Source: Promethearchaeota archaeon
GTDB lineage: Archaea > Asgardarchaeota > Hermodarchaeia > Hermodarchaeales > Hermodarchaeaceae
Assembly: GCA_048939245.1 (NCBI GenBank)
Contig: JBHLPR010000009.1
Location: 1 to 63,621, forward strand
DNA: 63,621 bases
Direction: 5' to 3'
In this document: positions 1 to 16,310 of the stretch, one piece after another
Position numbering within the stretch: the first letter of the stretch is position 1
Layout: the number at the start of each line of letters is the position of its first letter
Notes under the pieces: model-generated
Databases searched by the model: none
What the model was told of the DNA's origin: nothing
Seen by the model: only the letters and a program-made list of their open reading frames with translations
Program-made: the position numbers and the translations under genes

Positions 1-45
1 CTAATTCTGGATAAAAATCGGTATTCGGGGTATTCCCTCATTGCC

Positions 46-336
46 ATGAATGCAGCCGTCCCTTTCCTCTTGTACTTAGGAATCGACGGATTGTTAACTT
101 TTTCCTGGACGTTGCTACTGGCGCAAGTTCAACACATTTTCATGGTCTTCACCGCTATCTTCATCCTAGCTGTAACCTACTATAGTGCCGATGACACCAA
201 AGTCCGCAAACTCATGATAGGCCTTGCGATTGGAATCGTTGCACTCATAATCTTCCTGTTCGTTATTGTTCCCATCATTCTCTTAGATCCCTTGGCGCAA
301 ATCATTCTGGAATCCTATTTGCCCCAAATGCTTTGA
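46..336 (+). CDS. Small membrane protein (possibly 5'-truncated by the window edge)
   Basis: Three hydrophobic segments; its stop codon TGA overlaps the start of repeat copy 1. Confidence 0.6.
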   Translation: MNAAVPFLLYLGIDGLLTFSWTLLLAQVQHIFMVFTAIFILAVTYYSADDTKVRKLMIGLAIGIVALIIFLFVIVPIILLDPLAQIILESYLPQML

Positions 337-394
337 GCAACCGATTTTTCCAGTCGTTATATGTCGGTTTCCTAATCTTCGAAGACATATTGCT
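335..394 (+). repeat. Polar intergenic repeat copy 1 (no terminal hairpin)
   Basis: GAGCAACCGATTTTTCC at 335, GTTAT, TCGAAGACATATTGC at 379. Confidence 0.85.
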
Positions 395-536
395 GATTGT
401 AGCTTGTAATGGCAGTTTTTTCAGAATGATGAGGAGTTTTGTGCTTGTTGGAGCGTTGCCACAAGATGAATATTCAAGAAGATTGGTTTTTTTCTAAGTG
501 ATAATCCCTTTGGATTGAGTCCTGAGTACTTTATCA

Positions 537-1427
537 TTGATTTCAAATAGGAAAACCACTCAGAGATTGTTGGAGGGCTCAGTTTTGCTTCAACCACAAA
601 TCGCGATTGTTGGTGGATCGGGCTTGTATTCTATTCTTGAGAAGCCAAAAACCCAATGGATTACAACACCATTTGGTGGATCAGCACCTATTGACTTAGG
701 TGAGATATCGGGAAAACCAGTTGCGTTCTTAAACCGGCATCAATCTCCTGACCAAGGGGCTATTGCATCCCACTCAATACCACCGCATGCTGTTAACTAC
801 CGGGCGAACCTGTTGGCGCTTCGTCAACTTGGTGTGCGCTATGTCCTAGTTACCACAGCGGTGGGGAGTCTTCGTGAAAAGTTGCCGCCAGGGCAGCTAA
901 TTATACCTCACCAACTTATTGATTTGACTCAGTCTCGAACCTCGACTTTCTACGATGGCACCACCGTGTTTGAGATTGGAGGAAAGACCGTCTCTGGGAT
1001 CGTTCATATTGATGTGACGAATCCGTTTTGCTCAACTTTAAGGCGGGTCCTTCTAGGTGCTTGTAAGGAACTGCGTTTCCAGGCTGTGGATTCAGCAACA
1101 TATGCGGCGATGGAGGGGCCTCGGTTTGAAACGGCAGCGGAAATTAAGATGCTGCGCCAGCTTGGCGTTGATATTGTGGGGATGACATTGGCGCCTGAAG
1201 CGTTTCTTGCCCGTGAACTTGGGATGTGCTATGCCGCCTGTTCGGTGGTTACGAACTACGCTGCAGGGCTAGTAAAAACTCCAATTACTCATGAAGAAAC
1301 CCTTCGCACATTTAAGAGCCGTATTGAGCAGGTACAAAATGTGCTTCGCCTCGCTATTCAGAGCCTGCCGCCAACCCAACCTGATTGTAATTGTTACGCG
1401 GTATGGGAAAGTGCCACTCAGGGTTGA
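537..1427 (+). CDS. MTAP/PNP-family nucleoside phosphorylase, probably 6-oxopurine or methylthioinosine specific
   Basis: GGSG, PPHAVNYRAN, EGPRFET and VGMT motifs; VTNYAAG (Asn) rather than the TDYD of adenine-specific MTAP. Confidence 0.9.
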   Translation: MISNRKTTQRLLEGSVLLQPQIAIVGGSGLYSILEKPKTQWITTPFGGSAPIDLGEISGKPVAFLNRHQSPDQGAIASHSIPPHAVNYRANLLALRQLGVRYVLVTTAVGSLREKLPPGQLIIPHQLIDLTQSRTSTFYDGTTVFEIGGKTVSGIVHIDVTNPFCSTLRRVLLGACKELRFQAVDSATYAAMEGPRFETAAEIKMLRQLGVDIVGMTLAPEAFLARELGMCYAACSVVTNYAAGLVKTPITHEETLRTFKSRIEQVQNVLRLAIQSLPPTQPDCNCYAVWESATQG

Positions 1428-1489
1428 ACTGAGAAGATACAAGCGTTTGTAATTGGTTGAATTATTAGGAAAACTTAATGAATTTTTCA

Positions 1490-1593
1490 GAGCAAGGTGT
1501 TTTTCGGTGTGTTATCTGCCATGAATGATGCATGTCGAAGACATAAGTGCAATTCCTAATCAATGACGTGAAAGAGGATTTGTTTCGCATCAT
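1490..1593 (+). repeat. Polar intergenic repeat copy 2 (full)
   Basis: GAGCAAG 1490, TCGAAGACATAAGTGC 1535, AATGACGTGAAA-GAGGATTTG-TTTCGCATCAT 1562-1593. Confidence 0.92.
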
Positions 1594-1703
1594 GCTAATG
1601 ATGTATTCTCGGTGTTCTTTTTTGCTAGTGTACTGTTTCCCCAAATAACAAAAGGGGGCGGGAGATATGGTGTGTGGAATTCAAATAAGGAGACCTTGAT
1701 TGC

Positions 1704-2567
1704 GTGGAAGATATTGTCCTTAAGTATTCGACAGTTGATGGCGAAAAGGTGCAAGTTCAACTTCCTCCGGAAAAAACTGATATCGGATTATATGGGCGCG
1801 AAATTGTTGAGTTGGACCTCTCATCTATCGATCGACGTACCGAAATTGAAGAGCTAGATTTGCGAAGAAACCAATTGACCAACATTGATCTTGAACCGCT
1901 TCAACACTGTCCGAACTTGAAGAATCTGCGGTTAAGTGGAAATCAATTAATCCAACTCGATCTTGGTTCACTTGAGCATTGTAATCGATTACGTAAGCTG
2001 GAACTAAGTAATAATCAGCTCGCAGAAATCGATTTGACGGCACTTCAATCCTGTACTAAGCTTCGAGAACTTCATCTCACAGCTAATCGATTTCAGAAAA
2101 TTGATCTTGCTCCCCTTCACCAGTGCATGGACCTTCAAGAAATTCGGCTTAATTGGAACGCGCTTGTAGAAATTGATTTGACACCAGTAGGGTATTGGAG
2201 TCGGCTTGAAGATCTGATTTTGGACCGAAACCAGTTACAGGAAATTGATTTGACACCATTAAAACAGTGCACAGATCTTCGAACTCTCAAATTGGGTGAA
2301 AATCAATTGACTTCCATTGATTTGGAGCCGCTTAGAAATTGTCTTAAGCTAGAAATCTTGTATTTATCTGCTAACCCTTTTGAGCAGATTGATTTGTCAC
2401 CGCTCTTTTCTTGTCCGGTTTTGGGGCTTTTTTCGCTGCATCCGGGTGTTGAGTTGGTGGCGGACGCTTCGCTCAAAGATACTAAACCCATTCCACGGGC
2501 AATTCAAGAGTTAATAGACGAGATCAACTGGCAAGAAAAGGAATCTGCCCCAAGGAATAATCAGTGA
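1704..2567 (+). CDS. Leucine-rich repeat protein (22-aa repeats)
   Basis: About 9 tandem LxxLxLxxNQLxxIDLxPLxxC units. Confidence 0.92.
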   Translation: MEDIVLKYSTVDGEKVQVQLPPEKTDIGLYGREIVELDLSSIDRRTEIEELDLRRNQLTNIDLEPLQHCPNLKNLRLSGNQLIQLDLGSLEHCNRLRKLELSNNQLAEIDLTALQSCTKLRELHLTANRFQKIDLAPLHQCMDLQEIRLNWNALVEIDLTPVGYWSRLEDLILDRNQLQEIDLTPLKQCTDLRTLKLGENQLTSIDLEPLRNCLKLEILYLSANPFEQIDLSPLFSCPVLGLFSLHPGVELVADASLKDTKPIPRAIQELIDEINWQEKESAPRNNQ

Positions 2568-2901
2568 CTTTGTGGTTTTCAAAGGATCTAATGGGACTTT
2601 GGTTATTCTTGCTCGTCTTCGTTTTCGTACTCTTCAGACCACCCGATATCGGTTCGTTTGACTCGTTCACCGGAGATTAGCACATATTCACGGTTCTTGC
2701 GAGAGCGTGGTCGACGATGCAAATCCCGCATAACCCGTCCGTCAGTTTGTTTGTCATTATTTGTTTCTTCGCTCAAATTTTATCAGCTCCTGTATTGTAT
2801 GAGGTATGAATTGAGAGCCAGTCTCGGCGTCCTATTTTGACTACACATAATCGTTCAGCATAGAGTGGGATAGCCGAGATTGGATTAGGTTGATTTGTAG
2901 T

Positions 2902-3105
2902 TTATTCCACCACAACGTTTGTGGCTTTTTGCCCGCGGTCACCGTCTTCGATTTTGAAGCTGACCTTGTCGCCTTCTTTAAGCAGGTAAGCGCCTTCGAC
3001 TTCGCTACCGTGCACGAATACGTCGGTGCCGGTTTTACGTTCGATGAAACCGTAGTTACGATCGGGATTAAACCATTTGACTGTGCCTTTTACCATAGTG
3101 TTCAC
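2902..3105 (-). CDS. csp: Cold-shock domain protein (likely start ATG at 3096)
   Basis: GTVKWFN..YGFI (RNP1) and DVFVH (RNP2); GAGGTGA SD upstream of the ATG. Confidence 0.95.
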   Translation of the reverse strand: MNTMVKGTVKWFNPDRNYGFIERKTGTDVFVHGSEVEGAYLLKEGDKVSFKIEDGDRGQKATNVVVE

Positions 3106-3260
3106 CTCGATTTGCTTGAGTTGAGATGGGGTTATCTCTCAGGGATAGGTGGCTGTGTCACGCAACCGTACTGTTCCGTAGAATGTAATTCGGGGGAATA
3201 GCTGCCTAGCATGATAAGCTAAAGTTCTTCATAAAACGAAACTAAATCCTATTTGCTAAC
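3106..3260 (-). promoter_or_regulatory. Conserved promoter and structured 5' leader of csp
   Basis: Aligns with 52783-52910 upstream of the paralog; two conserved stems on the minus strand. Confidence 0.65.
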
Positions 3261-3337
3261 AACAAGAGGGAAGCTCGAGAGTGTTTATAGGTGTTGCCCC
3301 TCCTTGCATGTAGCAGTATTTTTACTTATGATTGAGG

Positions 3338-3432
3338 CTTCAAGTGGTTTTAGGGTACGTTATATGTTTACATGAATGACTATCGAAGACATACATGCCT
3401 GGAATCTTTCAAATGCTGTGAAAGATAATTTT
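3338..3432 (+). repeat. Polar intergenic repeat copy 3
   Basis: TCGAAGACATACATGC at 3383, AATGCTGTGAAAGATAATTT at 3412; right arm degenerate. Confidence 0.85.
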
Positions 3433-3541
3433 CAAGCTATTCAATGAATTTTCTTCATATCGAAACTCTTGCTTTGTTTTTAAGGAGAGAACACGCATAG
3501 GAGTGTTTCTCCTTTAACAACGACGCTGGAGTTGAAAATAA

Positions 3542-3931
3542 ATGGCTGAAGAATATGGGATGATAACGCGAATTACGTTCATCATCCATATAATCATTGG
3601 ACTCATTTTTGGAATTAGTTTCTTGGTCATCCCTGACATCATGTTACCGTTGTTTGGGATGGCTTTTGTTGATCCCACTGTGCGAATGTTTGGTGCTATC
3701 ATCATCGGTTTCACCGTTACATCAATCTTAGGCCTAATGACACGCGAGGTCGTCCGTGTGAAGATCATCATTCAAGCGGAGCTCATCTGGCTGATCTTGG
3801 GTATTATCGCTGGTGCTGTGCACTTAGTCATTCCTCCCTTATTGTCTCTGACCTTTGCTGGCGCTGCCATTGGTTCTCTAGTGATACTATTCATTCTGTT
3901 CCTCCTATCTTACTTCATGGAAATCAGATGA
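3542..3931 (+). CDS. Four-TM hypothetical membrane protein
   Basis: Four hydrophobic helices; GGAG SD. Confidence 0.8.
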   Translation: MAEEYGMITRITFIIHIIIGLIFGISFLVIPDIMLPLFGMAFVDPTVRMFGAIIIGFTVTSILGLMTREVVRVKIIIQAELIWLILGIIAGAVHLVIPPLLSLTFAGAAIGSLVILFILFLLSYFMEIR

Positions 3932-3961
3932 TAATAGCTCGACCTCAATATCATTGAAACT

Positions 3962-4003
3962 AGTCTGTCGGGATCGGAATCCCCACAGACTTCTTCTCTT
4001 TTT
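3962..4003 (+). terminator. Hairpin plus T-rich tract
   Basis: AGTCTGT.GGGAT-CGGA-ATCCC.ACAGACT followed by TCTTCTCTTTTT. Confidence 0.6.
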
Positions 4004-4073
4004 AGCTAACATAGACATCTCAACGTGTTGAGAAAGCAAAGATTGTTACGTTTTTTTGATGATTTTCAGCTCC

Positions 4074-4175
4074 GAGCAAGCAGTTGTTCCGACGATTATG
4101 TGTCAGTTTTTTGTTTCGAAGACGTTTATGCAATTCTAAGTATATAATGTGAGAGATGATTTGTTTCTCGTCGTT
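4074..4175 (+). repeat. Polar intergenic repeat copy 4 (full)
   Basis: GAGCAAG 4074, TCGAAGAC 4116, ATGTGAGA-GATGATTTG-TTTCTCGTCGTT. Confidence 0.9.
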
Positions 4176-4304
4176 CACTTAGTTGATATCATTGGATTTT
4201 TCCTCGGCTCTTATCAGGTATTTGCAAACGTATAGAAAATTAGTATACTATTTCAGATAGTTATAGAAGAATTGATTCATGGTTTGTGAATTGAGGAGGT
4301 AAAT

Positions 4305-4847
4305 GTGTTAATGATGCCAATTGGACCATTGATGATTGAACACAGGTTGATTGAACGGATGATTGGGTTAATGAGAGAGGAATTGGAACGGATTCGAGAT
4401 ACGGCGCGTGTGAATTCACGATTCATTGATACGGCAGTAGATTTTCTGAGGACCTATGCGGACAGGACTCATCATGGGAAGGAGGAGGATATTCTGTTTC
4501 GTGAGCTGTCAAAGAAATCGTTGACAGATAAGCACCAGAAAATTATGGGCGAACTGGTCGAGGAGCATGGAATTGCCCGGAAGACGGTGGGCCGTTTAAT
4601 TGAAGCGAATACGAAATACATGCAAGGCCATAACACCTCAGTCGATGAGATACTTCGCCTTCTTGAGAAACTCGTTAATTTTTACCCTGAACATATCCGG
4701 AAGGAGGATAAGGATTTCTTCATTCCGTGTATGAAATATTTTTCTCAACAGGAACAGCAGGACATGCTAGAGGAATTCTGGGCATTTGATCGGAAGATGA
4801 TTCATGAAAAGTACAAGAAAGTTGTTGATACTCTTACACTAAAATGA
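4305..4847 (+). CDS. Hemerythrin-domain protein
   Basis: EH..., HHGKEEDILF, EH and HIRKED motifs. Confidence 0.9.
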   Translation: MLMMPIGPLMIEHRLIERMIGLMREELERIRDTARVNSRFIDTAVDFLRTYADRTHHGKEEDILFRELSKKSLTDKHQKIMGELVEEHGIARKTVGRLIEANTKYMQGHNTSVDEILRLLEKLVNFYPEHIRKEDKDFFIPCMKYFSQQEQQDMLEEFWAFDRKMIHEKYKKVVDTLTLK

Positions 4848-4913
4848 AGAGATAAAAATCTAAGATTTCAAGATGTTCCCGTCCGCTCGTCAATCTGGTG
4901 GCTTTTAGGGTTC

Positions 4914-5019
4914 GAGCAAGCCGTTTTCCATGCTGTTATTTGCGCTTCTATTGAATTTCGAAGACATACATGCAGTTTCTTTCGAATGAAGTGAAAGATG
5001 ATTTGCTTCACATCATTCG
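4914..5019 (+). repeat. Polar intergenic repeat copy 5 (full; between convergent genes)
   Basis: GAGCAAGCCGTTTTCC 4914, GTTAT 4935, TCGAAGACATACATGC 4958, GAATGAAGTGAAA-GATGATTTG-CTTCACATCATTC 4984-5018. Confidence 0.93.
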
Positions 5020-5066
5020 CAAACCGATTTATGCACAAAAAACTGATTTCTCTTAAGAAGAAAGAA

Positions 5067-5948
5067 TTATCTAGCTACCACTCCGCGGACGAAGAACCCT
5101 AAGGGAATAAAACAGACCAACCCCATGATGAAGATCAAGATAATATCGACTAGAACGAACGGTGCACCCGTGAAAATCGGCTGGAGCAGGAGAAACATGA
5201 TCAAGCCGATGAATAACATACTCGCCACAAAGAGTAATCCCAATCCGCTGACATAGCCGAGAGAACTTCGCCGAAGCATTAAGCCTCCGCCAGCAATAAA
5301 GAGGATTGAGATAACTATGTCGGCAATCGACACACCAATTTCAGAAATAGGATGCAACATCGGATTTATGATTGTCCCGGCAATCACGCCAATTGCTCTG
5401 AAGATAAACAAGACGCCGAACCCAACCAGAACCAAACCGGCGATTCGTACTGGCACCCCTTTGGACAGCTGCTCGTGAATGGTTTTCTGATCAATGCTTT
5501 TCAAGAGCGTGAAAGTGCAGTATGTGCTCAGCAGAACGAGTACCACATATGATACAGTGAACACACTGAAAGGTATCCCGAAAATATAGGCGATGTAATT
5601 GTAGAGAATGTATAGCAGCGCGCCTGGCCAGAAAAGTAGACCCACCAGCTTCTCACTTTTCGTGAGCCACAGTGCAACAAGCAAGACTGGCACTCCTAGG
5701 AAGAGATTGACCACATCATTGGCAACAAACATTTGGAGAAGTTCTTCTGTTGGGTAGAGGGTGGAAGGCCAAAGCAAACCACCGAGGGACACAGCAGCCA
5801 TGAGGATGACGCTGACGAGGGTGAGCACAAAAGTAAATGTTAGATCACGCTTCACTGGAAGGTTACGAAGGTGAAGTGCGAGCGCCACCCAATTTTTTGT
5901 TTCTGGGACTTGAACCTCCATTGGAGTCGAATCAGCCATTTCGTTCAC
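5067..5948 (-). CDS. Multi-pass membrane protein
   Basis: About 8 TM helices; divergent from the TetR gene. Confidence 0.8.
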   Translation of the reverse strand: MNEMADSTPMEVQVPETKNWVALALHLRNLPVKRDLTFTFVLTLVSVILMAAVSLGGLLWPSTLYPTEELLQMFVANDVVNLFLGVPVLLVALWLTKSEKLVGLLFWPGALLYILYNYIAYIFGIPFSVFTVSYVVLVLLSTYCTFTLLKSIDQKTIHEQLSKGVPVRIAGLVLVGFGVLFIFRAIGVIAGTIINPMLHPISEIGVSIADIVISILFIAGGGLMLRRSSLGYVSGLGLLFVASMLFIGLIMFLLLQPIFTGAPFVLVDIILIFIMGLVCFIPLGFFVRGVVAR

Positions 5949-5965
5949 CTCATTTATTCCATATA

Positions 5966-6037
5966 AAATAAATGAACATTCACTTATTTATAAATCTTCC
6001 TCCCCCGAAACAAATCTTAATAAATGAATGCTTATTC
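5966..6037. promoter_or_regulatory. Putative TetR operators in the divergent promoter
   Basis: AAATAAATGAA-CA-TTCACTTATTT (5966-5989) and a related ATAAATGAAT-GCTT-ATTCA just upstream of tetR. Confidence 0.55.
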
Positions 6038-6617
6038 ACCTCTCAATATGAGAACTCGGGACCAGGCGAAATATGACGCGATTGTAAAGGCATCTATCCA
6101 GCTGGTCAATACACTCGGATTTGATGGCATCTCGATTTCCAAGATAGCGAAGAAAGCCAAAGTGTCACCAGCGACGATCTATATCTATTTTGAGAACAAA
6201 GCGGACCTATTTACCAAGCTCTATATCGATATTCGAAAGAAAACGCATCGAGGTCTCATTCAGGGAGTGCGGGATGAGATGACGATTGAACAAACATTCA
6301 AGACTATCTGGTATAACTCCTTCTTCTATCATCTCAAGCATCCTGAATATATTGTTTTTCGGGAACAGTTTGAACAGACATCGATGATGAAGAACGTCAG
6401 GGAGAATGAATTCGAGTCCTATAAATATGTCAGAAATCTCCTCCAGCGTGGCATTGACGAGAAGACCATTAAAAACCACCCATTACCCATTCTTACAGCT
6501 TTTGCCTTTATCCCTGTAATCACCCTCATCAAATATCATCGAAGTGGTATAATCAAGATGGATGAAGCCCAGATTCAGCAAGCATCTGAAATCGCATGGA
6601 ATGCCATTAGTAGCTAA
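6024..6617 (+). CDS. TetR/AcrR family regulator (likely start 6048)
   Basis: HTH IAKKAKVSPATIYIYFENK. Confidence 0.92.
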   Translation: MNAYSPLNMRTRDQAKYDAIVKASIQLVNTLGFDGISISKIAKKAKVSPATIYIYFENKADLFTKLYIDIRKKTHRGLIQGVRDEMTIEQTFKTIWYNSFFYHLKHPEYIVFREQFEQTSMMKNVRENEFESYKYVRNLLQRGIDEKTIKNHPLPILTAFAFIPVITLIKYHRSGIIKMDEAQIQQASEIAWNAISS

Positions 6618-6695
6618 CATATTGCACAAATCAACATAACCAATTAACGGGGGGAAAACCCTGGTTCAATCTGCAACAAATGCCTTTCAAAAATT

Positions 6696-6757
6696 GAGTT
6701 GCTTGTCTTTTCTCGAATTATATGCTCATAAGATTCTTTTTGAAGACTTAAATTCCA
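6696..6757 (+). repeat. Polar intergenic repeat copy 6 (degenerate)
   Basis: GAG at 6696 and TTGAAGAC at 6740, keeping the 44-bp spacing. Confidence 0.5.
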
Positions 6758-6898
6758 TTTTCATTAGGCTTTTGGCTACTTAGAGAAATGCATTTCATTG
6801 TAGACTGATTTGCTGTGAGGTAACATCTAGTTAGCACCTAAATATTGTGTTAGCCGATTAAGAACGATTTAAATATCAACAGCAAGCATAGGAAGCCT

Positions 6899-8680
6899 TT
6901 GGGAAGGTTTCGCATCTTTTTACCAAGAGGCGAACTATTTCCTATAGGAGGTAACATGGATTTGAAAAGATCCTACATTATAGCAATTGTGTTAGTAGTT
7001 ATCATTGTTGGAGGTGCAGCTGGCGTCTACTTCTTCATGAGGCCGCCACCAATAACTAACCTAATCGTCATGGGAACTACTGACTCAATAGAGACGGTCC
7101 TCGATCCCGCTAGAGCTTACGACTACTTTGCCTGGTCGATAATTGGTTCTCTCAGTTCAGGGTTAGTCGATATTGAACCCGGTTCTCAAGCAGAACCAGG
7201 CGATATCATACCTGGATTGGCAACGAGTTGGACAACGAGTGGCGCTGGATCCATATATGACTTCACTCTGAGAGAAGGCGTAACCTTCGCAGATGGATTA
7301 CCATTTAACGCATCAATCGTCAAATACACGTTCGATAGATCCTGCAACCTTACAGGTGAAGGGCTCTATGAACCTGAAGGATTTCAGCTTGGCATCGGCT
7401 TGGCTGACATTATTGAGAATGTGACAATATTGGGCGAATATTCTGTAAGGTTTTACTTGTATTTCCCCTGGGCTCCATTCTTACAAACAATGGCAGCACA
7501 AGGTTGTTTCATGGTACATCCAACGTATGCACCAATGAGTGAATTGGCTAATTACACTGAAGGTAATGCCCGTGCAAGCCATGCATGTGGTCTTGGTCCA
7601 TATCTTCTCCAAAGTTGGAGTCGTGTCGGCGGGTCAGATGAAGAGATGGTATTTGTCAAGAACCCCGACTACTGGGATGCTGCCAGTGGGCTGCCAAAGA
7701 CTGACACATTCATCATTAAATTCTATGAAAGCGACACCGCCCTTGCAACAGCAATGTCAGCTGGTGAAGTTGACGTAGCATACAGACAGCTCAGTGCAGC
7801 TCAAATCAATGCTTTTCGGGCGAATCCAGCAGTGCGAGTTTGGGAGGTAGCAGGTCCATTTATTCAGTATCTGTGCTTCCAACAGAGAACGTATCCTTAC
7901 AACGAAACTCTGATTCGGCAAGGAATAGCTGCCGCGTTGAACCGGACAAACTTGGTTGAGACAGTGTTCATTGGCACTGCGCAGCCTTTGTATAGTATTA
8001 TCCCTGAAGGGATGGCTTACCATAAGCCAACCTTTGAGGTACATGGCAGCGCAAACTACACTTACACTCAAACTGTTTTTGATCTCTTTGGCTACAATGC
8101 AACCAACAAACTGGTAGTCGAGTTATACTACGAGAGTTCAGGTCACTACCCACAAAGTGCAGAACAAGCAGCCTTTTTCAAGATAAATCTAGAGGCAAGC
8201 GGTGTAATGACTGTTAACCTAAATGCCCTCGAATGGGCAAGTTACAGAACTGCAAGAAGTGCTGGTTCAATGCCTGTCTACATATATGGATGGTACCCAG
8301 ATTACATTGATCCTGATAACTATGCTTTCTTGCCATTTGCTACTTGGCTCAACATGGGATACAATAGTACATATCCAGCAGGTGGAGTGGCGCAATACAA
8401 CCTGTGGGTTTGGGGTCGTAGTAATACCACTGATACAGGAAGACGGACCTCATATCACGCTCTACAAGATCTCCAAGCTCAAGAGTGCTCAGTGATTCCA
8501 TTGTATCAGGGTGGTGCATATGCGGTGAGCAAACTCACCATCCATGGCATTATCTTAGATATCACAATTAACTTCCGACACTGGCTCCTCTATTGGGGAG
8601 AAGAAGCGACCACTGGCCCGTTTTTAGTATTTCAAACCAACGTAATAGTGTCATCAGGCAACAAACAATTCAAGATTTAG
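6899..8680 (+). CDS. dppA: Peptide/nickel ABC transporter substrate-binding protein, family 5 (likely start 6956)
   Basis: N-terminal anchor, LDPA, YDFTLREGVTFADG, GWYPDYIDP; GGAGG before ATG 6956. Confidence 0.9.
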   Translation: MGRFRIFLPRGELFPIGGNMDLKRSYIIAIVLVVIIVGGAAGVYFFMRPPPITNLIVMGTTDSIETVLDPARAYDYFAWSIIGSLSSGLVDIEPGSQAEPGDIIPGLATSWTTSGAGSIYDFTLREGVTFADGLPFNASIVKYTFDRSCNLTGEGLYEPEGFQLGIGLADIIENVTILGEYSVRFYLYFPWAPFLQTMAAQGCFMVHPTYAPMSELANYTEGNARASHACGLGPYLLQSWSRVGGSDEEMVFVKNPDYWDAASGLPKTDTFIIKFYESDTALATAMSAGEVDVAYRQLSAAQINAFRANPAVRVWEVAGPFIQYLCFQQRTYPYNETLIRQGIAAALNRTNLVETVFIGTAQPLYSIIPEGMAYHKPTFEVHGSANYTYTQTVFDLFGYNATNKLVVELYYESSGHYPQSAEQAAFFKINLEASGVMTVNLNALEWASYRTARSAGSMPVYIYGWYPDYIDPDNYAFLPFATWLNMGYNSTYPAGGVAQYNLWVWGRSNTTDTGRRTSYHALQDLQAQECSVIPLYQGGAYAVSKLTIHGIILDITINFRHWLLYWGEEATTGPFLVFQTNVIVSSGNKQFKI

Positions 8681-8760
8681 GTACCAACCGTAAGCCTAAA
8701 CTATGACTTGATTGGAACTGATGACACCCACATTTTCTTTGGTAAAAAGGTGAGAATCGG

Positions 8761-9771
8761 GTGTCCCTAAGATCGTATATAGTCAGCCGTATCCTTATGA
8801 CGATTCCAATGATTTTGCTACTTCTCACACTCGTATTCTTCGTTGTCCGAGTTATGCCTGGTGATCCAGCACTATTGCATTTTGAGCGGCGAGTAGATCC
8901 CGCAGCTCTTGCTGAATTTCGGAGGCGTTTAGGATTAGATCTTCCCATTTTAGTCCAGTATATCAACTATCTAGGTGGGCTCCTTGTTGGTAATTTTGGG
9001 ATATCGATGCAAGACTATTCCCCCATTTCCCAACATATTGCTGCAAGGTTTCCTGCAACACTCGAGTTAACCATTTTTTCCTTGTTGTTTGCGGTCTTAG
9101 TTGGAATTGCCCTTGGAGTAACATCCTCGAAGAGATACGATTCTACTACGGATCATTCAATCAGACTTTTCGGTATTATAACCTATGCCATCCCCGTGTT
9201 TTTCTTGGGTATGGTCTTTCAGCTTGTATTTGCAGTATGGCTACATGTCTTACCGTCTGGGACAAGATTTGATCCACATTATGTTGCACCGCCAAGAATA
9301 ACGGGTCTCTACACAATTGACAGCCTGTTAACTGGTAATTTATGGGCATTTATGGTTTCCATTCGATACCTGATACTTCCTAGTGTTACTTTGGGACTCG
9401 TGCTTTGTGGAATTTTCATTCGTTTGACCCGAACTAACATGCTTGAAACACTTCGAAAGGATTTCGTAGTTGCAGCAGAAGCCAGAGGCCTTTCAGACTC
9501 CAGAATCACTTATCGTTATGCGCTCAGGAATGCATTTCTCCCAATCTTGACAATGATTGGTCTACAATTTGCAGTTCTTCTTGCCGGTGCTATTCTGACT
9601 GAGACTACATTCAGTTGGCCAGGTCTAGGAACCTATTTAGTCGATCGAATTGCTCATCGAGACTACACAGCTATTCAGGGCACCGTAGTGTTCTTTGGGA
9701 TTCTTGTGGCTGCTGTAACATTGATAGTCGACGTTTTATATGCAATCCTTGATCCGCGAATAAGACTCTAA
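8761..9771 (+). CDS. dppB: Peptide ABC transporter permease
   Basis: MPGDPA, EAA-like loop AEARGL, ETTFSWPGLG. Confidence 0.92.
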   Translation: MSLRSYIVSRILMTIPMILLLLTLVFFVVRVMPGDPALLHFERRVDPAALAEFRRRLGLDLPILVQYINYLGGLLVGNFGISMQDYSPISQHIAARFPATLELTIFSLLFAVLVGIALGVTSSKRYDSTTDHSIRLFGIITYAIPVFFLGMVFQLVFAVWLHVLPSGTRFDPHYVAPPRITGLYTIDSLLTGNLWAFMVSIRYLILPSVTLGLVLCGIFIRLTRTNMLETLRKDFVVAAEARGLSDSRITYRYALRNAFLPILTMIGLQFAVLLAGAILTETTFSWPGLGTYLVDRIAHRDYTAIQGTVVFFGILVAAVTLIVDVLYAILDPRIRL

Positions 9772-9783
9772 GAGCTGGTAAAG

Positions 9784-11049
9784 ATGGGAAACACCAAAAC
9801 AATTAGTGGTGTCTTTATTTACTTGAGACTTATTGAAGAACCCTTCCGCAATCGGTCGAAACTTTGGTGGATTGTGCTGGGCGTAATAATGGGATGTACA
9901 CTGGCTTTAGTTTCCAGCCTTATTATATTAGCTGCGAGGTCCAATAGCGGTCTAGGAATCCCAGTTGTTGTGGGAACTATCTTTTTTGCAGTGTCAATGC
10001 TAGTCACCGATTTCTTACGGACTCTCTTGGTTCGCCAGGGAACCTTGTCAACAAGAATGGGAACGTTGTTTGTGATTGGTGTTTATTGCCTATTTGGAAT
10101 CATCACAATTCCTGTTAGCATCTTTATTCTTCCTTTAGCATGGTTTGATCTTTGGACAGTATTTGTAATGGGCGGTGCTATTCTTGGAATTTTGCTACTC
10201 TTTCTCTACCATGGATATTCTATGTTGAAAGAAAGGGGTTCCCCTGGATTTTTGGCTATCTCAGGATTGTTGATGGTGCTTGCTATCATCTATATGACCG
10301 TTGTTGCGTATTGGATCGTCCCCTATGACCCCTTCACGATCAATGTTGGACCAATACTTTTTCCTCCGAGCCCTGGTTATCCTCTAGGAACTACTTCGCT
10401 GGGACAGGACTTACTTAGTAGAACCATTGCTGGCGGTGCCATCATGTTACAAGTGGCATTTATTTCGGTGGTGGTTTGTTTCTTTGTTGGAGTTCCATTG
10501 GGGCTAATCGCCTCATATAGGGGAGGAATTTTTGATCGTGTACTATCACTTGTCATGGATAGTATCTTTGCATTCCCCGGTCTGGTTCTGGCCATCGCCA
10601 TTGCAGCAATGCTCGGGCCAGGTGTTGTTAACATGGCTTTTGCAATTGCCGTCGTTTACGTCCCCTCTTACTTTAGAGTGCTCCGGAGCCAAGTTCTTAC
10701 TATCAAAGAACTCCCTTACGTCGAAGCAGCTAAAGTCATGGGTGCTAGAGACAGAGACATCATGTTCAGATATATTCTGCCTAATGCCATAGCCTCAGTC
10801 GTTGTTGTGATGTCCATTAACTTTGCAGATGCAGTTCTCACTGCTGCGGGGTTGACATTTGTGGGTTTGGGACTTCCGATTGATATTGCTGATTGGGGAT
10901 GGGACCTGACCTTTGGCTGGCATCAACTAATAACTGGCGCGTGGTGGGTTATCACATTCCCTGGCCTTATGATCGTCTTACTTGCGCTAGGATTCACCCT
11001 GGTTGGTGAAGGATTAAATGAAATACTAACACCGATGCTTAAGGACTAG
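9784..11049 (+). CDS. dppC: Peptide ABC transporter permease with extra N-terminal TM segments
   Basis: PLGT..LGQDLLSR, YVEAAKVMGA, WWVITFPG. Confidence 0.9.
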   Translation: MGNTKTISGVFIYLRLIEEPFRNRSKLWWIVLGVIMGCTLALVSSLIILAARSNSGLGIPVVVGTIFFAVSMLVTDFLRTLLVRQGTLSTRMGTLFVIGVYCLFGIITIPVSIFILPLAWFDLWTVFVMGGAILGILLLFLYHGYSMLKERGSPGFLAISGLLMVLAIIYMTVVAYWIVPYDPFTINVGPILFPPSPGYPLGTTSLGQDLLSRTIAGGAIMLQVAFISVVVCFFVGVPLGLIASYRGGIFDRVLSLVMDSIFAFPGLVLAIAIAAMLGPGVVNMAFAIAVVYVPSYFRVLRSQVLTIKELPYVEAAKVMGARDRDIMFRYILPNAIASVVVVMSINFADAVLTAAGLTFVGLGLPIDIADWGWDLTFGWHQLITGAWWVITFPGLMIVLLALGFTLVGEGLNEILTPMLKD

Positions 11050-12066
11050 ATGGAAATGCGTGCCCTTCTCGAAATTCGTAATTTGACTGTTGAATATAAA
11101 ACGCGTTTAGGCACCGCCAGGGCAGTGGATAATGTTTCCTTAACTCTTGAGGAAAACAAAACCCTTGGTCTTGCAGGTGAATCAGGCTGTGGAAAATCAA
11201 CTTTGGGTAGATCAATTATACGTCTTGTTTCTCATCCTGGTCGCATACTTGAAGGTGAAATTCTACTCAATCTTGATGAGGACGTGCCTTATGAGGAGGG
11301 AGTTGTTAAGAAAGGACAAATCGATCTAATGCAGCTTAATAATGAGCAGATGAGAGCACTTCGAGGTAGAAAGCTCGCATACATCTTTCAAGACCCTATG
11401 ACCTCCCTAAATCCTATGATTAGAATTGGTCAGCATTTTGTGGAAATACAACAAACGCACAACCCAGATATTTCTACTGAAGATGCTCAGAAGGCTGCAA
11501 GGGATCTTCTTGAAGAATTAGACATTCTTCCTGAACGTGTTTTAGATTACCCGCACCAGTTCAGTGGAGGTATGCGCCAACGCGTTATGATTGGTTTAGG
11601 AATTGCTTTGACACCACAACTGCTGATAGCTGATGAGCCGACCACCTCCCTCGATGTGATTGTGGAGGCACAGATTCTGAAGCTAATTGCAGGTCTCAAG
11701 AAAGAGTTCAATCTGAGTATGATGTTAATTACACATAATCTGGGAGTATTGGCTCAGACAGCTGATAGTATCGCCATCATGTATACTGGCAGAATTATGG
11801 AAGTGGCTCCGACTGAGGCATTGTTCAAGTCTCCTCAGCATCCATATACAAAAGCTCTACTGCAATCAGTTCCTGATGTAACAAAACCGGATAAAAAGCT
11901 CGCCTGGATTCCTGGAACACCACCCAGTCTTACTGAGCCTTTTCCGGGTTGCATGTTTAGACCGCGATGTCCGTATGCGATGGAAATTTGTGAAGTAGAA
12001 CCGCCTCCGCTGAAAAAGAGTGAGTCGGGAGGAATCGTCGCATGCTATCTCTATGAGGGGGCGTAA
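11050..12066 (+). CDS. dppD: Peptide ABC transporter ATP-binding protein
   Basis: GESGCGKS, FSGGMRQR, C-terminal GCxFxPRC. Confidence 0.93.
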   Translation: MEMRALLEIRNLTVEYKTRLGTARAVDNVSLTLEENKTLGLAGESGCGKSTLGRSIIRLVSHPGRILEGEILLNLDEDVPYEEGVVKKGQIDLMQLNNEQMRALRGRKLAYIFQDPMTSLNPMIRIGQHFVEIQQTHNPDISTEDAQKAARDLLEELDILPERVLDYPHQFSGGMRQRVMIGLGIALTPQLLIADEPTTSLDVIVEAQILKLIAGLKKEFNLSMMLITHNLGVLAQTADSIAIMYTGRIMEVAPTEALFKSPQHPYTKALLQSVPDVTKPDKKLAWIPGTPPSLTEPFPGCMFRPRCPYAMEICEVEPPPLKKSESGGIVACYLYEGA

Positions 12067-12068
12067 TT

Positions 12069-13049
12069 ATGTCTTTACTTGAAGTTAAGAATATCGTGAA
12101 GTATTTCCCGGTCCAGAAGGGCTTTCTTGATACTCTTCTAACCAAGCAAAAAGAATTTGTCAAAGCAGTAGACGACGTTTCCTTTGAAATCGAAGAGGGG
12201 GAAGTTTTCGGCCTTGCAGGAGAGAGTGGCTCAGGGAAGACAACTATGGGGAGACTTGTTGTGCGATTACTAGATCCCACAGCTGGGCAAATTTTCTTTG
12301 ATGGCAAAGACATTGCTAAGATTCGCGGAAAAGAACTACGATTATTAAAGCGGAGACTTCAGTTCACCTTTCAAGATCCTTCATCATCACTAAACCCGCG
12401 ATTGAAGATTGGAGACGCAATTGCTGATGCGCTGAGGTTCCAAGGGATTGGAACACGGAGTGAACAGAAGCAGCGAGCAATGAAGATTCTAGAACGAGTA
12501 GGTCTTTCCCCAGCTAGCTCCTTTTATGATAGGCTTCCTCATCAACTCAGTGGCGGTCAAAAGCAGAGAGTTGTGTTTGGGAGAGCTATCATTCTCGAAC
12601 CAGAATTTGTCGTCACCGACGAACCGGTTGCGATGGTCGATGTTTCAGTTAGAGCTCAGATTCTGGAGCTCATGAAAGACTTGCAGAAGGAATACAGCCT
12701 GACTTATCTTTTTATCTCCCATGATCTTGCCACTGCACGGCATGTCTGTGACCGGATTGGCATTATGTATCTGGGGAAGATTGTAGAGATTGCTGATATA
12801 GACCAAATCTATGAGGATTCACTTCATCCTTATGCTGTTGGTTTGATGGCTGCAATACCTGTGCCAGATCCTAAGGTAGAGAAGGGAGAGACAATTCCCA
12901 AGGGCGAAATTCCCAGTCCAATTAATCCACCACCGGGATGCAATTTTCATCCACGATGTCCTAGAGCTTTTGAACCATGCCCGGTGGAAGAACCCGAGCT
13001 TCGTGAAGTTAAGAAGAACCATTGGGTAGCCTGTCATCTATATGATTAA
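12069..13049 (+). CDS. dppF: Peptide ABC transporter ATP-binding protein
   Basis: GESGSGKT, LSGGQKQR, GCNFHPRC. Confidence 0.93.
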   Translation: MSLLEVKNIVKYFPVQKGFLDTLLTKQKEFVKAVDDVSFEIEEGEVFGLAGESGSGKTTMGRLVVRLLDPTAGQIFFDGKDIAKIRGKELRLLKRRLQFTFQDPSSSLNPRLKIGDAIADALRFQGIGTRSEQKQRAMKILERVGLSPASSFYDRLPHQLSGGQKQRVVFGRAIILEPEFVVTDEPVAMVDVSVRAQILELMKDLQKEYSLTYLFISHDLATARHVCDRIGIMYLGKIVEIADIDQIYEDSLHPYAVGLMAAIPVPDPKVEKGETIPKGEIPSPINPPPGCNFHPRCPRAFEPCPVEEPELREVKKNHWVACHLYD

Positions 13050-13159
13050 TCCCTGTATTACCCTCCCCCCTCCGGATCACATTCCTATATTTGCAGATAA
13101 GACACTCCAGCTCTTTTCATTTCAGTTGATGGTTTTGTCTCACCAAGTAGGTTGAAGTC

Positions 13160-13265
13160 AATAATGCTAATTATCACTTGATATCAGCCATCCTGATGAA
13201 TTTCGAAGACATACTTGCGTAGGATCTTTCAAGTGATGTGAAAGATAGATTTGTTTCACATCGTT
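13160..13265 (+). repeat. Polar intergenic repeat copy 7
   Basis: TCGAAGACATACTTGC 13203, AAGTGATGTGAAA-GATAGATTTG-TTTCACATCGTT 13231-13265. Confidence 0.92.
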
Positions 13266-13283
13266 TACTATCCTTTGAGTTTC

Positions 13284-13328
13284 GAAAAAAAAGAAAAAAG
13301 GAAGTAATGCCGTGGCAGACATCACTTC
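13284..13328 (-). terminator. Hairpin plus U-tract terminator of the 13344-13646 gene
   Basis: Minus-strand RNA GAAGUGAUGUC-UGCCAC-GGCAUUACUUC followed by a long U-rich run. Confidence 0.7.
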
Positions 13329-13343
13329 AAGGAGACCGTGTTT

Positions 13344-13646
13344 TTAGGTTGTTTTGAACCCATAGAGTGGTAAGGCTTCTTCAGGGGTCCATACTGGTTC
13401 TATGCGCATTTTGTAGCCTTTGATCGGGATGAATTTGGCCATGACCTGGTTTAAATAGGCGAGACCTTCTTTGGCCTTGGCATCATTGATTTCATAGAAC
13501 GTGTACGTTTTGATGTCATCTGCAGCAGAAATGAATTGGTATAAATGTTTGACAAATTTGGGTCGTTGAGGTAATTCTCATAAGAATACCTTGACAACCT
13601 CCTTAACCATGTGTGGGGGAAACTGGTTAGTTAGCATGACGTGCAT
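13344..13646 (-). pseudogene. Paralog of the 101-aa protein at 37728-38033, with one in-frame TGA at codon 23 (absent from the ORF track)
   Basis: Hand translation MHVMLTNQFPPHMVKEVVKVFL*ELPQRPKFVK...EGLAYLNQV...TPEEALPLYGFKTT*; TGA at 13580-13578. Confidence 0.85.
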
Positions 13647-13768
13647 GCAGTTATGACCTCCAACTTTTACTTGAGGATCTATAGATTACTCCCTATAGAC
13701 TCCCCTAATTGGATGCTTTCAAAGCCAATTTTATAAAAAGGATAAGTTACTTGTTTACGTTGGTATTG

Positions 13769-13874
13769 CTGCAGTTTTATTTTCAAGATGTTGTTCGCCA
13801 CCTTATAGGAAGTCGAAGACGTATATGCGATTTGTTACTATTAGCTCGAAAGATATGATTAGTTCCGCATCATT
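13769..13874 (+). repeat. Polar intergenic repeat copy 8 (between divergent genes)
   Basis: TCGAAGACGTATATGC 13813, GAAAGATATGATTAGTTCCGCATCATT. Confidence 0.85.
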
Positions 13875-13953
13875 AGTATTCCTTGAATCATCATCGAGAA
13901 TTCCTTTTTATTTCAAGATAACAAAGGGTTAGTATATTGGACCTCGAAGGCTG

Positions 13954-14787
13954 GTGGAGTTACCTGTATTGAATAATTCTTCGTCTGTAGATGAGTTGAA
14001 GCCGAAGACCTGGGGTGGGTTCTGGGATATCTTTGGTGAGGTTCTTGTTGACCTGCTAGACATTCAGGAGGGGCAGCGGGTTTTAGATATTGGCACTGGC
14101 GGGGGTTCCGTGCTCTATCCCCTGTCGAAAAAAGTTGGTGCATCGGGACGTGTCATTGGCGTCGAAACATGCTATCATTGTGTGGAAAATACCAATGCGG
14201 AAATCAAGCGGTGCAAGATTTGCAATTCCGTGGTGCGCTATATGGATGCTCGTGAAGCGGATTTCGAGGAGCACTCGTTTGATTGCATTACGGCAGGATT
14301 CATTGGGTGGGATAATTACTTTGACTTTAAGACGCTTGAGTATAAGAAACCCGACGACCTGATGGAGGCAATTTGTAGGTTTCTCAAACCGAAAGGGAAG
14401 TTTGGTATGAGTACGTGGCTCCTGCAGGAGGATCTGGATTGGATGTATGAGTTTCTCTCAGTGCAGTCCATTGAGTGTAAACGCAATTATCATCTTGAGA
14501 ATGAGAAGGGATGGGAAAAAATCCTATCAATAGCGGGATTCCAGAAAATACGAAGCCGCACCCATCAGGCTTCATTTACTTATGATACCTTTGATTTCTG
14601 GTGGAAAGAGATGATGGACTATGAGTGGCCTGTTACAGGCAACAACAGTGAGGTGGTTACTGATTCCATAAAGGCAGCAGCGTTTGACTCATTACAAGGT
14701 CGGTTGACGGAGACTGGCGGAATCCCCTTCAGGCGAGATGCACTCTTTGTGACGGCAATCCGACCGGACAATACACCGAGTTCTTGA
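13954..14787 (+). CDS. Class I SAM-dependent methyltransferase
   Basis: VLDIGTGGG motif I, SFDCI, LKPKGKF. Confidence 0.88.
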   Translation: MELPVLNNSSSVDELKPKTWGGFWDIFGEVLVDLLDIQEGQRVLDIGTGGGSVLYPLSKKVGASGRVIGVETCYHCVENTNAEIKRCKICNSVVRYMDAREADFEEHSFDCITAGFIGWDNYFDFKTLEYKKPDDLMEAICRFLKPKGKFGMSTWLLQEDLDWMYEFLSVQSIECKRNYHLENEKGWEKILSIAGFQKIRSRTHQASFTYDTFDFWWKEMMDYEWPVTGNNSEVVTDSIKAAAFDSLQGRLTETGGIPFRRDALFVTAIRPDNTPSS

Positions 14788-14909
14788 CTAGTGGGGGAGG
14801 TAGTTGTTCTGGACATCGTAGGTAATTCATCGATAGGTTCGAAAACACTATTGCGATTCTGGAGTATGATTCGTGCCAGGTTATCTCATGGATTTGGAGC
14901 CGTTTCGTG

Positions 14910-15689: not shown

Positions 15690-15774
15690 TGTTCAGGTAT
15701 TTAGTAAGTTAGTGTACAGATTCTGTAAAATGATTCTTACAGACTAAAACTGTGCGTTGATGGTATTTTGCATT

Positions 15775-15879
15775 AACCAAGCGGTTTCTCCAGTTGATTT
15801 ATGCCAGTTAATTTAGTTTCAAAGACACAAATGCCTTATCTCGAACTAACGATGTGAAAGATGATTTGTTTCACATCAT
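15775..15879 (+). repeat. Polar intergenic repeat copy 9 (full; between two minus-strand genes)
   Basis: CAAGCGGTTTCTCC, TCAAAGACACAAATGC 15819, GATGTGAAA-GATGATTTG-TTTCACATC. Confidence 0.92.
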
Positions 15880-15905
15880 ACTGTTTCGGGTGGGTAACCA
15901 ATATT

Positions 15906-16310
15906 CTAGCCAATGAGTGGCATGATCGTGTACTTCACCTGTTGGAGTCCTCGTATGGCTCGGATTCGGCTAATGAACTCGGTTACATCTTTGGCTTCTC
16001 CCTCAGCAATGAATACCTCTAGGCAATAGGTTTCACCAAGGTGTAAGTGCATATTACCAGATACAATATGGCTGTGGGCATGACGAAGGCGTGTTAATCG
16101 TTCATCGACTCCTGGCAGCTCGTGAGCGGAGATGGCGGTGATGGTGGCTGTCACTCGTCCTCCTTCAAATTGTTGGAGTTCAAATTCTGAAAGCGCAGTG
16201 CGAACCGCATCCCGAATCGCCTCTGACCGACTGGAATACCCCCGTTCCTTCATGAAGTGGTCCAATTGTTTCAGTAGTTGGGCGGTTAATGATATGCTAA
16301 TAATAGGCAT
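15906..16310 (-). CDS. NikR-like ribbon-helix-helix metalloregulator
   Basis: ISISL...GYSSRSEAIRDA RHH domain; HLHL...CLEV metal site. Confidence 0.88.
   Translation of the reverse strand: MPIISISLTAQLLKQLDHFMKERGYSSRSEAIRDAVRTALSEFELQQFEGGRVTATITAISAHELPGVDERLTRLRHAHSHIVSGNMHLHLGETYCLEVFIAEGEAKDVTEFISRIRAIRGLQQVKYTIMPLIG

Follow-up and report, generated by a model that had tools for sequence, protein, structure and literature searches.

A 63,621-nucleotide stretch of DNA from a Promethearchaeota archaeon of the family Hermodarchaeaceae (contig JBHLPR010000009.1 of assembly GCA_048939245.1), hereafter called the window, carries a ~120-nt intergenic element in 16 clear and six weak copies, all of which lie on the + strand. 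The genes between these copies occupy both strands (~40% are on the opposite strand, as judged from rough open reading frame (ORF) calls) and have unrelated accessory functions, which include a nucleoside phosphorylase, a leucine-rich repeat protein, a hemerythrin, an Opp-type ABC operon, a methyltransferase, NikR, two P-type ATPases and two luciferase-like oxidoreductases. The resulting cassettes span ~0.5 to 8 kb and often contain several genes. All 16 clear copies fall between called ORFs irrespective of the strand of the neighbouring genes, and two of them touch an ORF at their ends (23261; 38226-38247). An earlier note on this DNA had singled out the copy at positions 4914-5019, which is located between the hemerythrin cassette (ORF 4305-4847, + strand) and the next cassette (ORF 5067-5948, - strand), and had proposed that it is a multi-protein recombination site with a terminal inverted repeat. 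Here we report that this repeat is built from conserved boxes and variable linkers, that it marks junctions at which cassettes have exchanged neighbours between related species, and that these exchanges map to two zones within the element.

The abundance of the repeat was evaluated in several ways. Matches to TCGAAGACA with at most one mismatch number 44 in the window, compared with 16.2 +/- 3.8 in shuffled sequences, and none of 100 shuffles reached 44. An nhmmer profile, seeded with five copies and iterated over the 2.52-Mb host genome (G000) at E values up to 0.01, yielded 21 matches. Sixteen reside on the window contig (342-38247, all on the + strand, E 1e-21 to 2e-3), the other five are on the small contigs C106, C121 and C50, and no match at this threshold was present on any other contig of the genome. 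A laxer search of the window found no - strand match with E < 5 and added the six weak copies (Table 1), which suggests that the array extends to at least ~46 kb. On the window contig, the exact octamer TCGAAGAC has 15 occurrences on the + strand and two on the - strand, and in the rest of the genome it has 75 and 82, respectively.

Representatives of the repeat are confined to one genus. All of the genomes compared are fragmented metagenome bins of 72-91% completeness, with the host genome at 88%. At E values up to 0.001, a sequence-only covariance model built from 64 copies identified 234 copies, which come from 14 of the 15 genomes of the genus (0 to 36 per genome, 23 in the host); four genomes of the sister genus gave 0 copies. 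When a single 106-nt copy was used as a BLAST query, matches were obtained in 12 of the 14 other genomes of the genus, a lone 21-nt match (E 0.0098) was seen in one of the four sister-genus genomes, and nothing was found in 22 genomes from other families of the phylum. The motif TCGAAGAC-N30-38-GAAAGAT-N0-1-GATTTG was also sought in two public collections, from which close relatives may be missing. It returned ten single matches in unrelated genomes and nine in metagenome contigs, none of which lies in an array, and all of which score at or below 15.4 bits against the repeat profile.

Array contigs from six other species were added to those of the host, and a profile search of this set gave 117 copies on 18 contigs. 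All but one of these (116) share their orientation within their own contig. Both halves of the element are present in 76 copies, whereas 29 carry the left half only (the T side, up to TCGAAGAC) and 12 the right half only (the H side). We aligned 64 full copies from seven genomes. The alignment omits one of 65 eligible copies, which has an insertion of ~20 nt in its middle segment, along with two full copies on small contigs of the host genome and one that spans two fetched pieces.

The alignment reveals boxes separated by linkers of nearly constant length. The distance from AGCAAG to TCGAAGAC is 43 nt in 42 of the 64 copies and 44 nt in 12 (range 40-45), which places GAGC 44-45 nt from TCGAAGAC. 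TTTTTC precedes GTTAT by 11 nt in 60 of 64 copies, and GTTAT precedes TCGAAGAC by 23 nt in 45 and by 24 nt in 15. The interval from TCGAAGAC to TGAAAG is 34 nt in 44 copies, 33 nt in eight, 36 nt in eight, 35 nt in two, and 27 and 30 nt in one copy each. At the 3ʹ end, GATTTG and TCAC are 8 nt apart in 62 of 64 copies, and the spacer between the inverted arms measures 9 nt in 49 copies, 10 nt in eight and another length in seven. Mean pairwise identity reaches 0.86 for both the T box TTTCGAAGAC and the spacer, followed by 0.80 for GTTAT, 0.74 for the 5ʹ arm, 0.67 for TTTTTC and 0.63 for the 3ʹ arm, whereas the linkers (0.26-0.39) approach the level of the flanking DNA (0.24-0.27).

Much of the description in the earlier note therefore holds for the family as a whole. 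Its positions for GAGC, GTTAT (at +21), TCGAAGAC, TGAAAG, the arms and the spacer all match the window in the copy at 4914-5019, where GAGC begins at 4914, TCGAAGAC begins 44 nt later at 4958, TGAAAG follows 34 nt further on at 4992, and arm pairing reaches out to 4983/5019. Conserved blocks joined by linkers that vary in sequence and hardly at all in length were likewise recovered in the 64 full copies, as were 12-bp inverted arms around an asymmetric spacer of 9-10 bp. Uniform decay with freely varying linkers, which the note had set against its own proposal, is the opposite of the pattern seen. The spacing between GAGC, GTTAT and TCGAAGAC was measured at ~21-23 bp, close to the ~22 bp that the note had read as two-turn phasing of bound proteins; this meaning might apply.

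Cassettes of the window recur in the arrays of other species, where they retain their orientation relative to the repeat and appear in a changed order. For example, 14 segments of the window map in scrambled order to a single contig (C66) of genome G008. All copies were compared pairwise in five segments (~6,200-6,800 pairs), with flank sharing defined as identity of at least 85%. Left flanks are shared by 14 pairs and right flanks by four, and no pair shares both. Thus, between species, no junction retains both of its neighbours. The array nevertheless has a fixed address. The region at 53.7-60.6 kb of the window is a gene block that is conserved in 13 of the 14 other genomes, and because repeats reside upstream of this same block, in the same orientation, in G000, G003 (C67) and G012 (C17), the array occupies one fixed locus. 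No tRNA genes are present in the window or in 20 array loci, and tRNA-anchored accretion was rejected on this basis.

Junctions themselves can change. On contig C66 of G008 (21335-21372) the hemerythrin cassette abuts a luciferase-like gene with 37 nt and no repeat between them, and the same two genes each carry their own junction repeat in the window (4847-5067; 23261-23344). Junctions therefore can be lost and cassettes fused. One small cassette occurs twice in the array (13263-13782 and 37648-38166), each time bounded by junction repeats; its segments 13340-13571 and 13590-13738 are 75-76% identical to 37724-37955 and 37977-38125, respectively, and it encodes an ORF of ~100 amino acids (37728-38033, - strand). 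An early cassette includes a 103-amino-acid ORF (2890-3201), of which the stretch 2992-3125 has paralogs at 52235-52368 and 52669-52802 (87% and 63%), and homologs of this ORF in the arrays of other species match both the 3-kb and the 52-kb places. The array may thus reach ~53 kb, beyond the last detected repeat. A 496-amino-acid ORF (38226-39716) that starts right at a junction repeat encodes a repeat protein without a Pfam or NCBIfam match, and contains six tandem 156-nt units (38613-39493) that are 61-72% alike.

In alignments of copies that share one flank, sequence identity ends abruptly. We located these ends with a change-point model that uses the column conservation of the family itself as background, and applied it to 17 left-sharing and eight right-sharing cross-genome pairs, with positions counted from the T of TCGAAGAC and a resolution of approximately +/-10 bp. 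Among the left-sharing pairs, 12 of 17 break at -12 to +10, around the T box, four break at the 5ʹ edge of the repeat (-54 to -80), and one breaks at +47 in a copy without a T box. Six of the eight right-sharing pairs break at +33 to +65, a zone that covers the H arms and spacer (the spacer itself occupies +42 to +50), and the remaining two break at the T box, in both cases in copies without the H repeat. Junctions that carry only T or only H also swap partners, and do so at the box that they have; both boxes therefore are real exchange points. With regard to the earlier proposal of a recombination site, exchange does occur at the element, and the H zone is included. However, H is neither the sole nor the main exchange point, and protein binding is putative. 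Most left breaks map to TTTCGAAGAC ~34 bp upstream of the inverted repeat, and the two modules also occur apart.

The main rival explanation for these breaks is homology- or microhomology-mediated recombination without a dedicated enzyme, in which the repeats merely supply the homology to delete, circularise and reinsert the intervening DNA, and in which the boxes are conserved for other reasons or by gene conversion. The two breakpoint zones are also the two most conserved stretches of the element, and the same pattern of breaks is expected from recombination through the longest identical stretches. More than one zone, including the 5ʹ edge, is used. Moreover, the segment of ~35 nt between the boxes falls into a few subtypes that are linked to neither flank, a pattern that short conversion tracts would produce, and similar middle segments (at least 80% identity) are slightly more common within a genome than between genomes (8.9% versus 4.7% of pairs, p = 0.002). 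The lack of an array-linked recombinase, discussed below, is also as expected. However, gene conversion predicts uniform likeness along the element, and this is at odds with identities of 0.86 in the boxes and ~0.3 in linkers of constant length. In at least five separate comparisons, T-only junctions swap partners within a common core of ~10-12 bp, a short length for homologous recombination, and 12 of the 17 left breaks chose the 10-bp T box instead of the longer 33-bp H block. On balance, we regard enzyme-free recombination as the foremost competing explanation and nonetheless an unlikely one.

Another way to account for the middle segment would be its duplication at each insertion, in the manner of a target-site duplication or of the repeats in clustered regularly interspaced short palindromic repeat (CRISPR) arrays. 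This was rejected, since adjacent junctions are no more alike in this segment (0.637, 43 pairs) than non-adjacent ones (0.655, 358 pairs).

Rearranged junctions are present in environmental sequence data as well. Assembled contigs from four public runs of four studies were compared with positions 1-20000 of the window, a comparison that reveals presence and not frequency. A contig from one run (X2) has three listed differences over window positions 1-386 and then continues with 30 of 30 shown letters identical to the start of host contig C106, such that it changes cassette immediately past TCGAAGAC (379-386). The next cassette of the window (bin 668-1334) has a depth of 0 in the same run. A contig present in runs X4 and X3 connects 15862 with 4158 through a single intervening letter, and both positions are within H spacers of different copies. 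Two more joints connect repeat to repeat, one from 1557 to 4992, where 12 letters are replaced, and the other from 3303 to 4985. Contigs from X2 and X4 also lead from 7058 back to 4662, in both runs through an identical stretch of 25 letters. This joint lies inside genes (for a solute-binding protein and a hemerythrin) and not at repeats, and may represent a paralog in another organism or a different arrangement.

A different class of explanation holds that the element acts as a folded single strand, either as a DNA hairpin like those of attC sites or IS200/IS605 elements, or as a small RNA or RNA hairpin made from the repeat. The earlier note had considered such a hairpin as its alternative. 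The arms can pair (76.6% of 757 cells in the 12-bp arms are complementary) and form the only stable part of the fold, all copies reside on one strand, and the best Rfam match near the copy is SNORD2, a C/D-box family, on the - strand of the arms. Yet this match scores 25.9 bits against a gathering score of 37, Rfam returns no matches in the window at gathering level, and the D box (CUGA) is absent from the consensus on either strand. A 121-nt copy folds no better than shuffled sequences whether treated as DNA (either strand) or as RNA (z -0.59, -0.88 and +0.29), and only the terminal ~37 nt, the arms, pair. A scan of positions 4800-5100 with models for bacterial-type promoters and terminators, which do not extend to archaeal promoters, identified 0 sites.

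Comparative evidence for pairing is also missing. RNAalifold predicts 0 consensus pairs from 64 copies, and the complementarity of the arms is indistinguishable from that obtained when partners are shuffled among sequences (76.8 +/- 0.6%; 323 of 500 shuffles equal or exceed the observed value). The covariation score is 0.158, compared with 0.165 in these shuffles. At the most variable pair of arm positions the four combinations occur roughly independently, and the top pairs in a mutual-information scan of the alignment are adjacent columns, with no complementary long-range pairs among them. Each arm thus keeps a consensus of its own, and it is this, instead of selection for pairing, that makes the two an inverted repeat. 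In addition, the two arms of a given junction often differ in source, and the 88%-complete host genome yielded no Y1 transposase, reverse transcriptase or Cas1. Since the arms do not covary, both an attC-like or IS200-like DNA hairpin and an RNA stem are disfavoured, and we consider any folded-strand function very improbable. Arms that vary independently would instead fit a pair of protein half-sites on duplex DNA.

A duplex site need not be a recombination site. The repeat might serve a chromosomal function of the host by binding protein in a polar manner, for example as a replication-fork barrier or as a domain or insulator site, with exchange as a by-product of stalled forks. The strict co-orientation of copies whatever the strand of the genes, the fixed locus by the conserved gene block, and the resemblance of the boxes to putative binding sites on duplex DNA would all be accommodated, as would the fact that the copies point one way relative to a GC skew that is positive window-wide. 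This skew is positive in 14 of 15 4-kb bins, with values of 0.15-0.19 past 40 kb, and all repeat copies are on the G-rich strand of the window. However, the skew shows no inflection in the window, the copies all coincide exactly with cassette boundaries and travel with cassettes from species to species, and a copy number that varies from 0 to 36 within one genus, with none in its sister genus, is odd for a maintenance function. A role of this type therefore seems quite improbable, albeit somewhat less so than a folded strand.

The search for an enzyme that might act on the repeat produced one candidate of known type. The host genome carries a single gene with a PF00589 match, on contig C82, whose product of 315 amino acids passes the NCBIfam model for archaeal XerA (274 bits, cut-off 220) and fails the models for integron integrases (164 versus 265; 118 versus 435). 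An XerA ortholog is encoded by 13 of the 15 genomes of the genus, in no case on a contig with an array, and no array contig in these genomes carries a full-length PF00589 match. The few additional integrase matches are likewise on other contigs, except for a 67-amino-acid PF00589 fragment on contig C51 of G009, ~7 kb from a copy. Matches to serine recombinase PF00239, Y1 transposase PF01797, reverse transcriptase PF00078 and Cas1 PF01867 number 0 in the host genome, and its six TnpB-like genes are all on other contigs. A weight matrix of the H block scores at best 16.8 bits outside the array, compared with 28-52 bits inside, and thus H provisionally appears not to mimic a visible chromosomal dif site. 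The host XerA would be the only candidate of known type, and an unknown enzyme is equally possible.

Taken together, we favour the explanation, with a probability of roughly 60%, that the repeat serves in cis, as double-stranded DNA, as a multi-box site at the junctions of a mobile cassette array, and that exchange takes place both at TTTCGAAGAC and at the H spacer. The T module of this proposed site is a left arm of ~70 bp, in which GAGCAAGC, TTTTTC and GTTAT are held at fixed distances, that ends in TTTCGAAGAC. The H module is a segment of ~55 bp whose end consists of two inverted arms of 12 bp with the asymmetric spacer GAT(A)GATTTG between them. Cassettes that comprise one to several genes on either strand would be excised and reinserted at junctions, each retaining its orientation while swapping neighbours, through DNA exchange at TTTCGAAGAC or directly adjacent to it, and within or alongside the H spacer. 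The boxes could bind a recombinase and accessory factors, and the enzyme presumably acts in trans. A spacer that is conserved as well as the best box is what one would anticipate if it forms an overlap whose sequence has to agree in both partners and has to fix their orientation. If the asymmetric spacer does set direction, this would explain the strict co-orientation of the copies.

Several aspects of the data weigh against a dedicated junction site. The compared pairs are not independent, since orthologous junctions are counted in several genomes, and the breakpoints are resolved to about +/-10 bp. Two exchange zones 34 bp apart, together with the four breaks at the 5ʹ edge, match no single known site-specific mechanism, whereas recombination through identical stretches would produce the same pattern, and the middle segment is linked to neither flank. 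The variable 9-10-bp spacer differs from those of canonical tyrosine-recombinase cores, array contigs have no full-length recombinase gene, and no H-like site was detected elsewhere in the host chromosome, all as judged from incomplete and fragmented bins. Finally, the joints in the environmental contigs have only 29-45 matching letters on their short side and may stem from related species.

A broader proposal can be offered more tentatively. This genus of Asgard archaea possibly runs a cassette-capture platform that is not an integron, in which a two-part duplex site (T box plus H) would be served by a host enzyme in trans, either XerA reused on a non-dif site with an overlap of 9-10 bp or a recombinase not yet described, and in which tens of accessory-gene cassettes would be stored and shuffled at one fixed chromosomal locus. 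The mapped boxes and breakpoints (Table 1) make this model directly testable.

Table 1. Boxes of the junction repeat at 4914-5019 and other copies of the repeat in the window. T denotes the position of the T box.
Feature	Position	Strand	Remarks
Full junction repeat (5ʹ half, T box, middle segment, H inverted repeat)	4914-5019	+	nhmmer E 2e-21; 95.8 bits
5ʹ edge box GAGCAAGC	4914-4921	+	AGCAAGC mean pairwise identity 0.48
GTTAT box	4935-4939	+	starts at +21 from GAGC; identity 0.80
T box TTTCGAAGAC, first exchange zone	4956-4965	+	identity 0.86
Middle segment, rTAnATGC-nnTTTCT-linker	4966-4984	+	subtypes linked to neither flank
H inverted repeat, 5ʹ arm AATGAAGTGAAA	4985-4996	+	window reading and arm alignment
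Asymmetric spacer GATGATTTG, second exchange zone	4997-5005	+	identity 0.86
H inverted repeat, 3ʹ arm CTTCACATCATT	5006-5017	+	window reading and arm alignment
Copy with 5ʹ half and T box only	349-403	+	T at 379-386
Full copy	1503-1591	+	T at 1535
Copy with degenerate 3ʹ arm	3356-3431	+	T at 3383
Full copy, arms GTGAGA/TCTCGT	4088-4172	+	T at 4116
Full copy, 10-nt spacer	13178-13262	+	T at 13203
Full copy	13783-13871	+	T at 13813
Full copy, left partner of the joint 15862 to 4158	15790-15877	+	TCAAAGAC at 15819
T-side-only copy	18447-18495	+	T at 18475
Copy with T box, degenerate 3ʹ part	22558-22626	+	T at 22587
Copy	23263-23336	+	TCGAAGTC at 23290
Copy	24385-24462	+	T at 24408
Copy	31369-31445	+	T at 31391
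H-side-only copy, inverted repeat without 5ʹ half or T box	36309-36344	+	
Copy without 5ʹ arm	37572-37647	+	T at 37601
Copy	38167-38247	+	TCGAAGCC at 38198
Six weak copies	19533-19580, 30371-30435, 39751-39810, 41743-41789, 45855-45890, 45945-45986	+	laxer search; E 0.0025-0.044

The repeat can be compared with several known types of site. Tyrosine-recombinase core sites such as dif and loxP, to which the earlier note had likened the H region, also have inverted arms of 11-12 bp around an asymmetric and highly conserved spacer, and exchange in the present array appears to map in or beside the spacer as well. However, the H spacer of 9 or 10 nt falls outside the canonical 6-8 bp, varies in length, and is accompanied by a second zone at TTTCGAAGAC, such that the label of a canonical core does not hold. 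The dif/XerA site follows an 11-6-11 architecture (Cortez et al. 2010, PMC2958812).

Some mobile elements borrow the Xer machinery of their host, among them integrative mobile elements exploiting Xer (IMEX) and pdif modules. The present array resembles these in that a single conserved XerA-type recombinase is encoded elsewhere in each of 13 of the 15 genomes of the genus. Whereas the sites of pdif modules alternate in orientation, all sites of the present array are direct. Lambda-type attP offers a further parallel, being a long asymmetric site with arm-type or accessory boxes next to the crossover, much as several boxes at fixed helical spacing are located beside the exchange zones here. Tandem accretion arrays, cis-mobilizable elements (CIMEs) and tycheposon-like cargo arrays share the head-to-tail stacking and the co-oriented hybrid junctions whose halves derive from different neighbours. 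Unlike these, the array has no member with an integrase and no tRNA or gene 3ʹ end as its target, and its copies are ~60-80% alike overall instead of being near-identical att duplications.

Dispersed repeats and transposons are more distant comparisons. Repetitive extragenic palindromic (REP) elements, bacterial interspersed mosaic elements (BIMEs) and miniature inverted-repeat transposable elements (MITEs) are similarly short, non-coding, intergenic, multi-copy elements with a terminal inverted repeat. The junction repeat differs from REP and MITE sequences in that it is not dispersed (21 matches on four contigs), has one orientation, lacks inverted repeats at both of its ends and is positioned at cassette borders. 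It differs from IS200/IS605-type elements such as palindrome-associated transposable elements (PATEs) in that PF01797 has no match in the host genome and the sole hairpin shows no covariation. The aloposons of Heimdallarchaeum were also considered and are unrelated, being tRNA-targeting giant-gene transposons (PMC8813620).

A second array of co-oriented junction repeats exists in the same genus. This vps4-promoter array was found in the host genome (C19:12771-22383 and C54:15220-15406) and in 10 of the 14 other genomes of the genus. Across 17 copies from 10 genomes the core of its repeat, GCAAAGACTAAAGAAGGCGTT, is invariant, and two copies diverge right after GGCGTT. The two repeats are unrelated in sequence, and the vps4-promoter repeat has 1-5 copies per genome versus up to 36. 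A shared crossover core was rejected, as only AAGAC is common to it and the T box and this was taken as chance. A third co-oriented repeat family of ~90 nt (82-91% alike) is present on a 5.4-kb contig of the host (C52: 389, 1296, 3544 and 4921), and may be coding or another junction repeat. If the platform interpretation is true, the vps4-promoter array would make cassette stacking without a private integrase a general habit of the lineage.

The closest parallel in genomic behaviour is with integrons and with clusters of attC sites lacking integron-integrases (CALINs). As in these systems, co-oriented short repeats separate unrelated, independently mobile accessory-gene cassettes that recur elsewhere in a new order with their orientation kept, and as in CALINs there is no integrase beside the array. 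One study reports an enrichment of cassette arrays in Asgard archaea (Ghaly et al. 2022, PMC9668308). The search that we made of the literature, which did not extend to the supplements of papers, found no description of arrays of the present type in Asgard or Hermod archaea.

Integrons have sites of a different construction. An attC site ends in the cores Rʹʹ (RYYYAAC) and Rʹ (GTTRRRY), with the crossover in Rʹ. The 64-copy consensus of the junction repeat has no such cores at its ends, and its GTTAT is internal and followed by nnGC. The repeat likewise lacks the imperfect palindrome of a whole attC site (Rʹʹ-Lʹʹ...Lʹ-Rʹ) and any structure signal, it has two exchange zones (TTTCGAAGAC and the H spacer) instead of one, and no IntI was found in the 15 genomes of the genus, which are 72-91% complete. 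The repeat thus lacks three of four integron features (attC structure, R cores and IntI) and, as judged from these sequence comparisons, is not an attC site.

To our knowledge, the storage and reshuffling of single gene cassettes is well understood in integrons alone, and the archaeal integrons that we know of use bacterial-type attC and IntI parts. If an enzyme for the junction repeat were found, it would either extend the role of XerA beyond chromosome resolution or be a new recombinase with a defined substrate of ~120 bp, and either outcome would be of interest both for archaeal genome plasticity and as a tool. The array described here achieves integron-like genomic behaviour by way of a different site, one that is probably duplex, built from boxes, equipped with two exchange points and free of an adjoining integrase.

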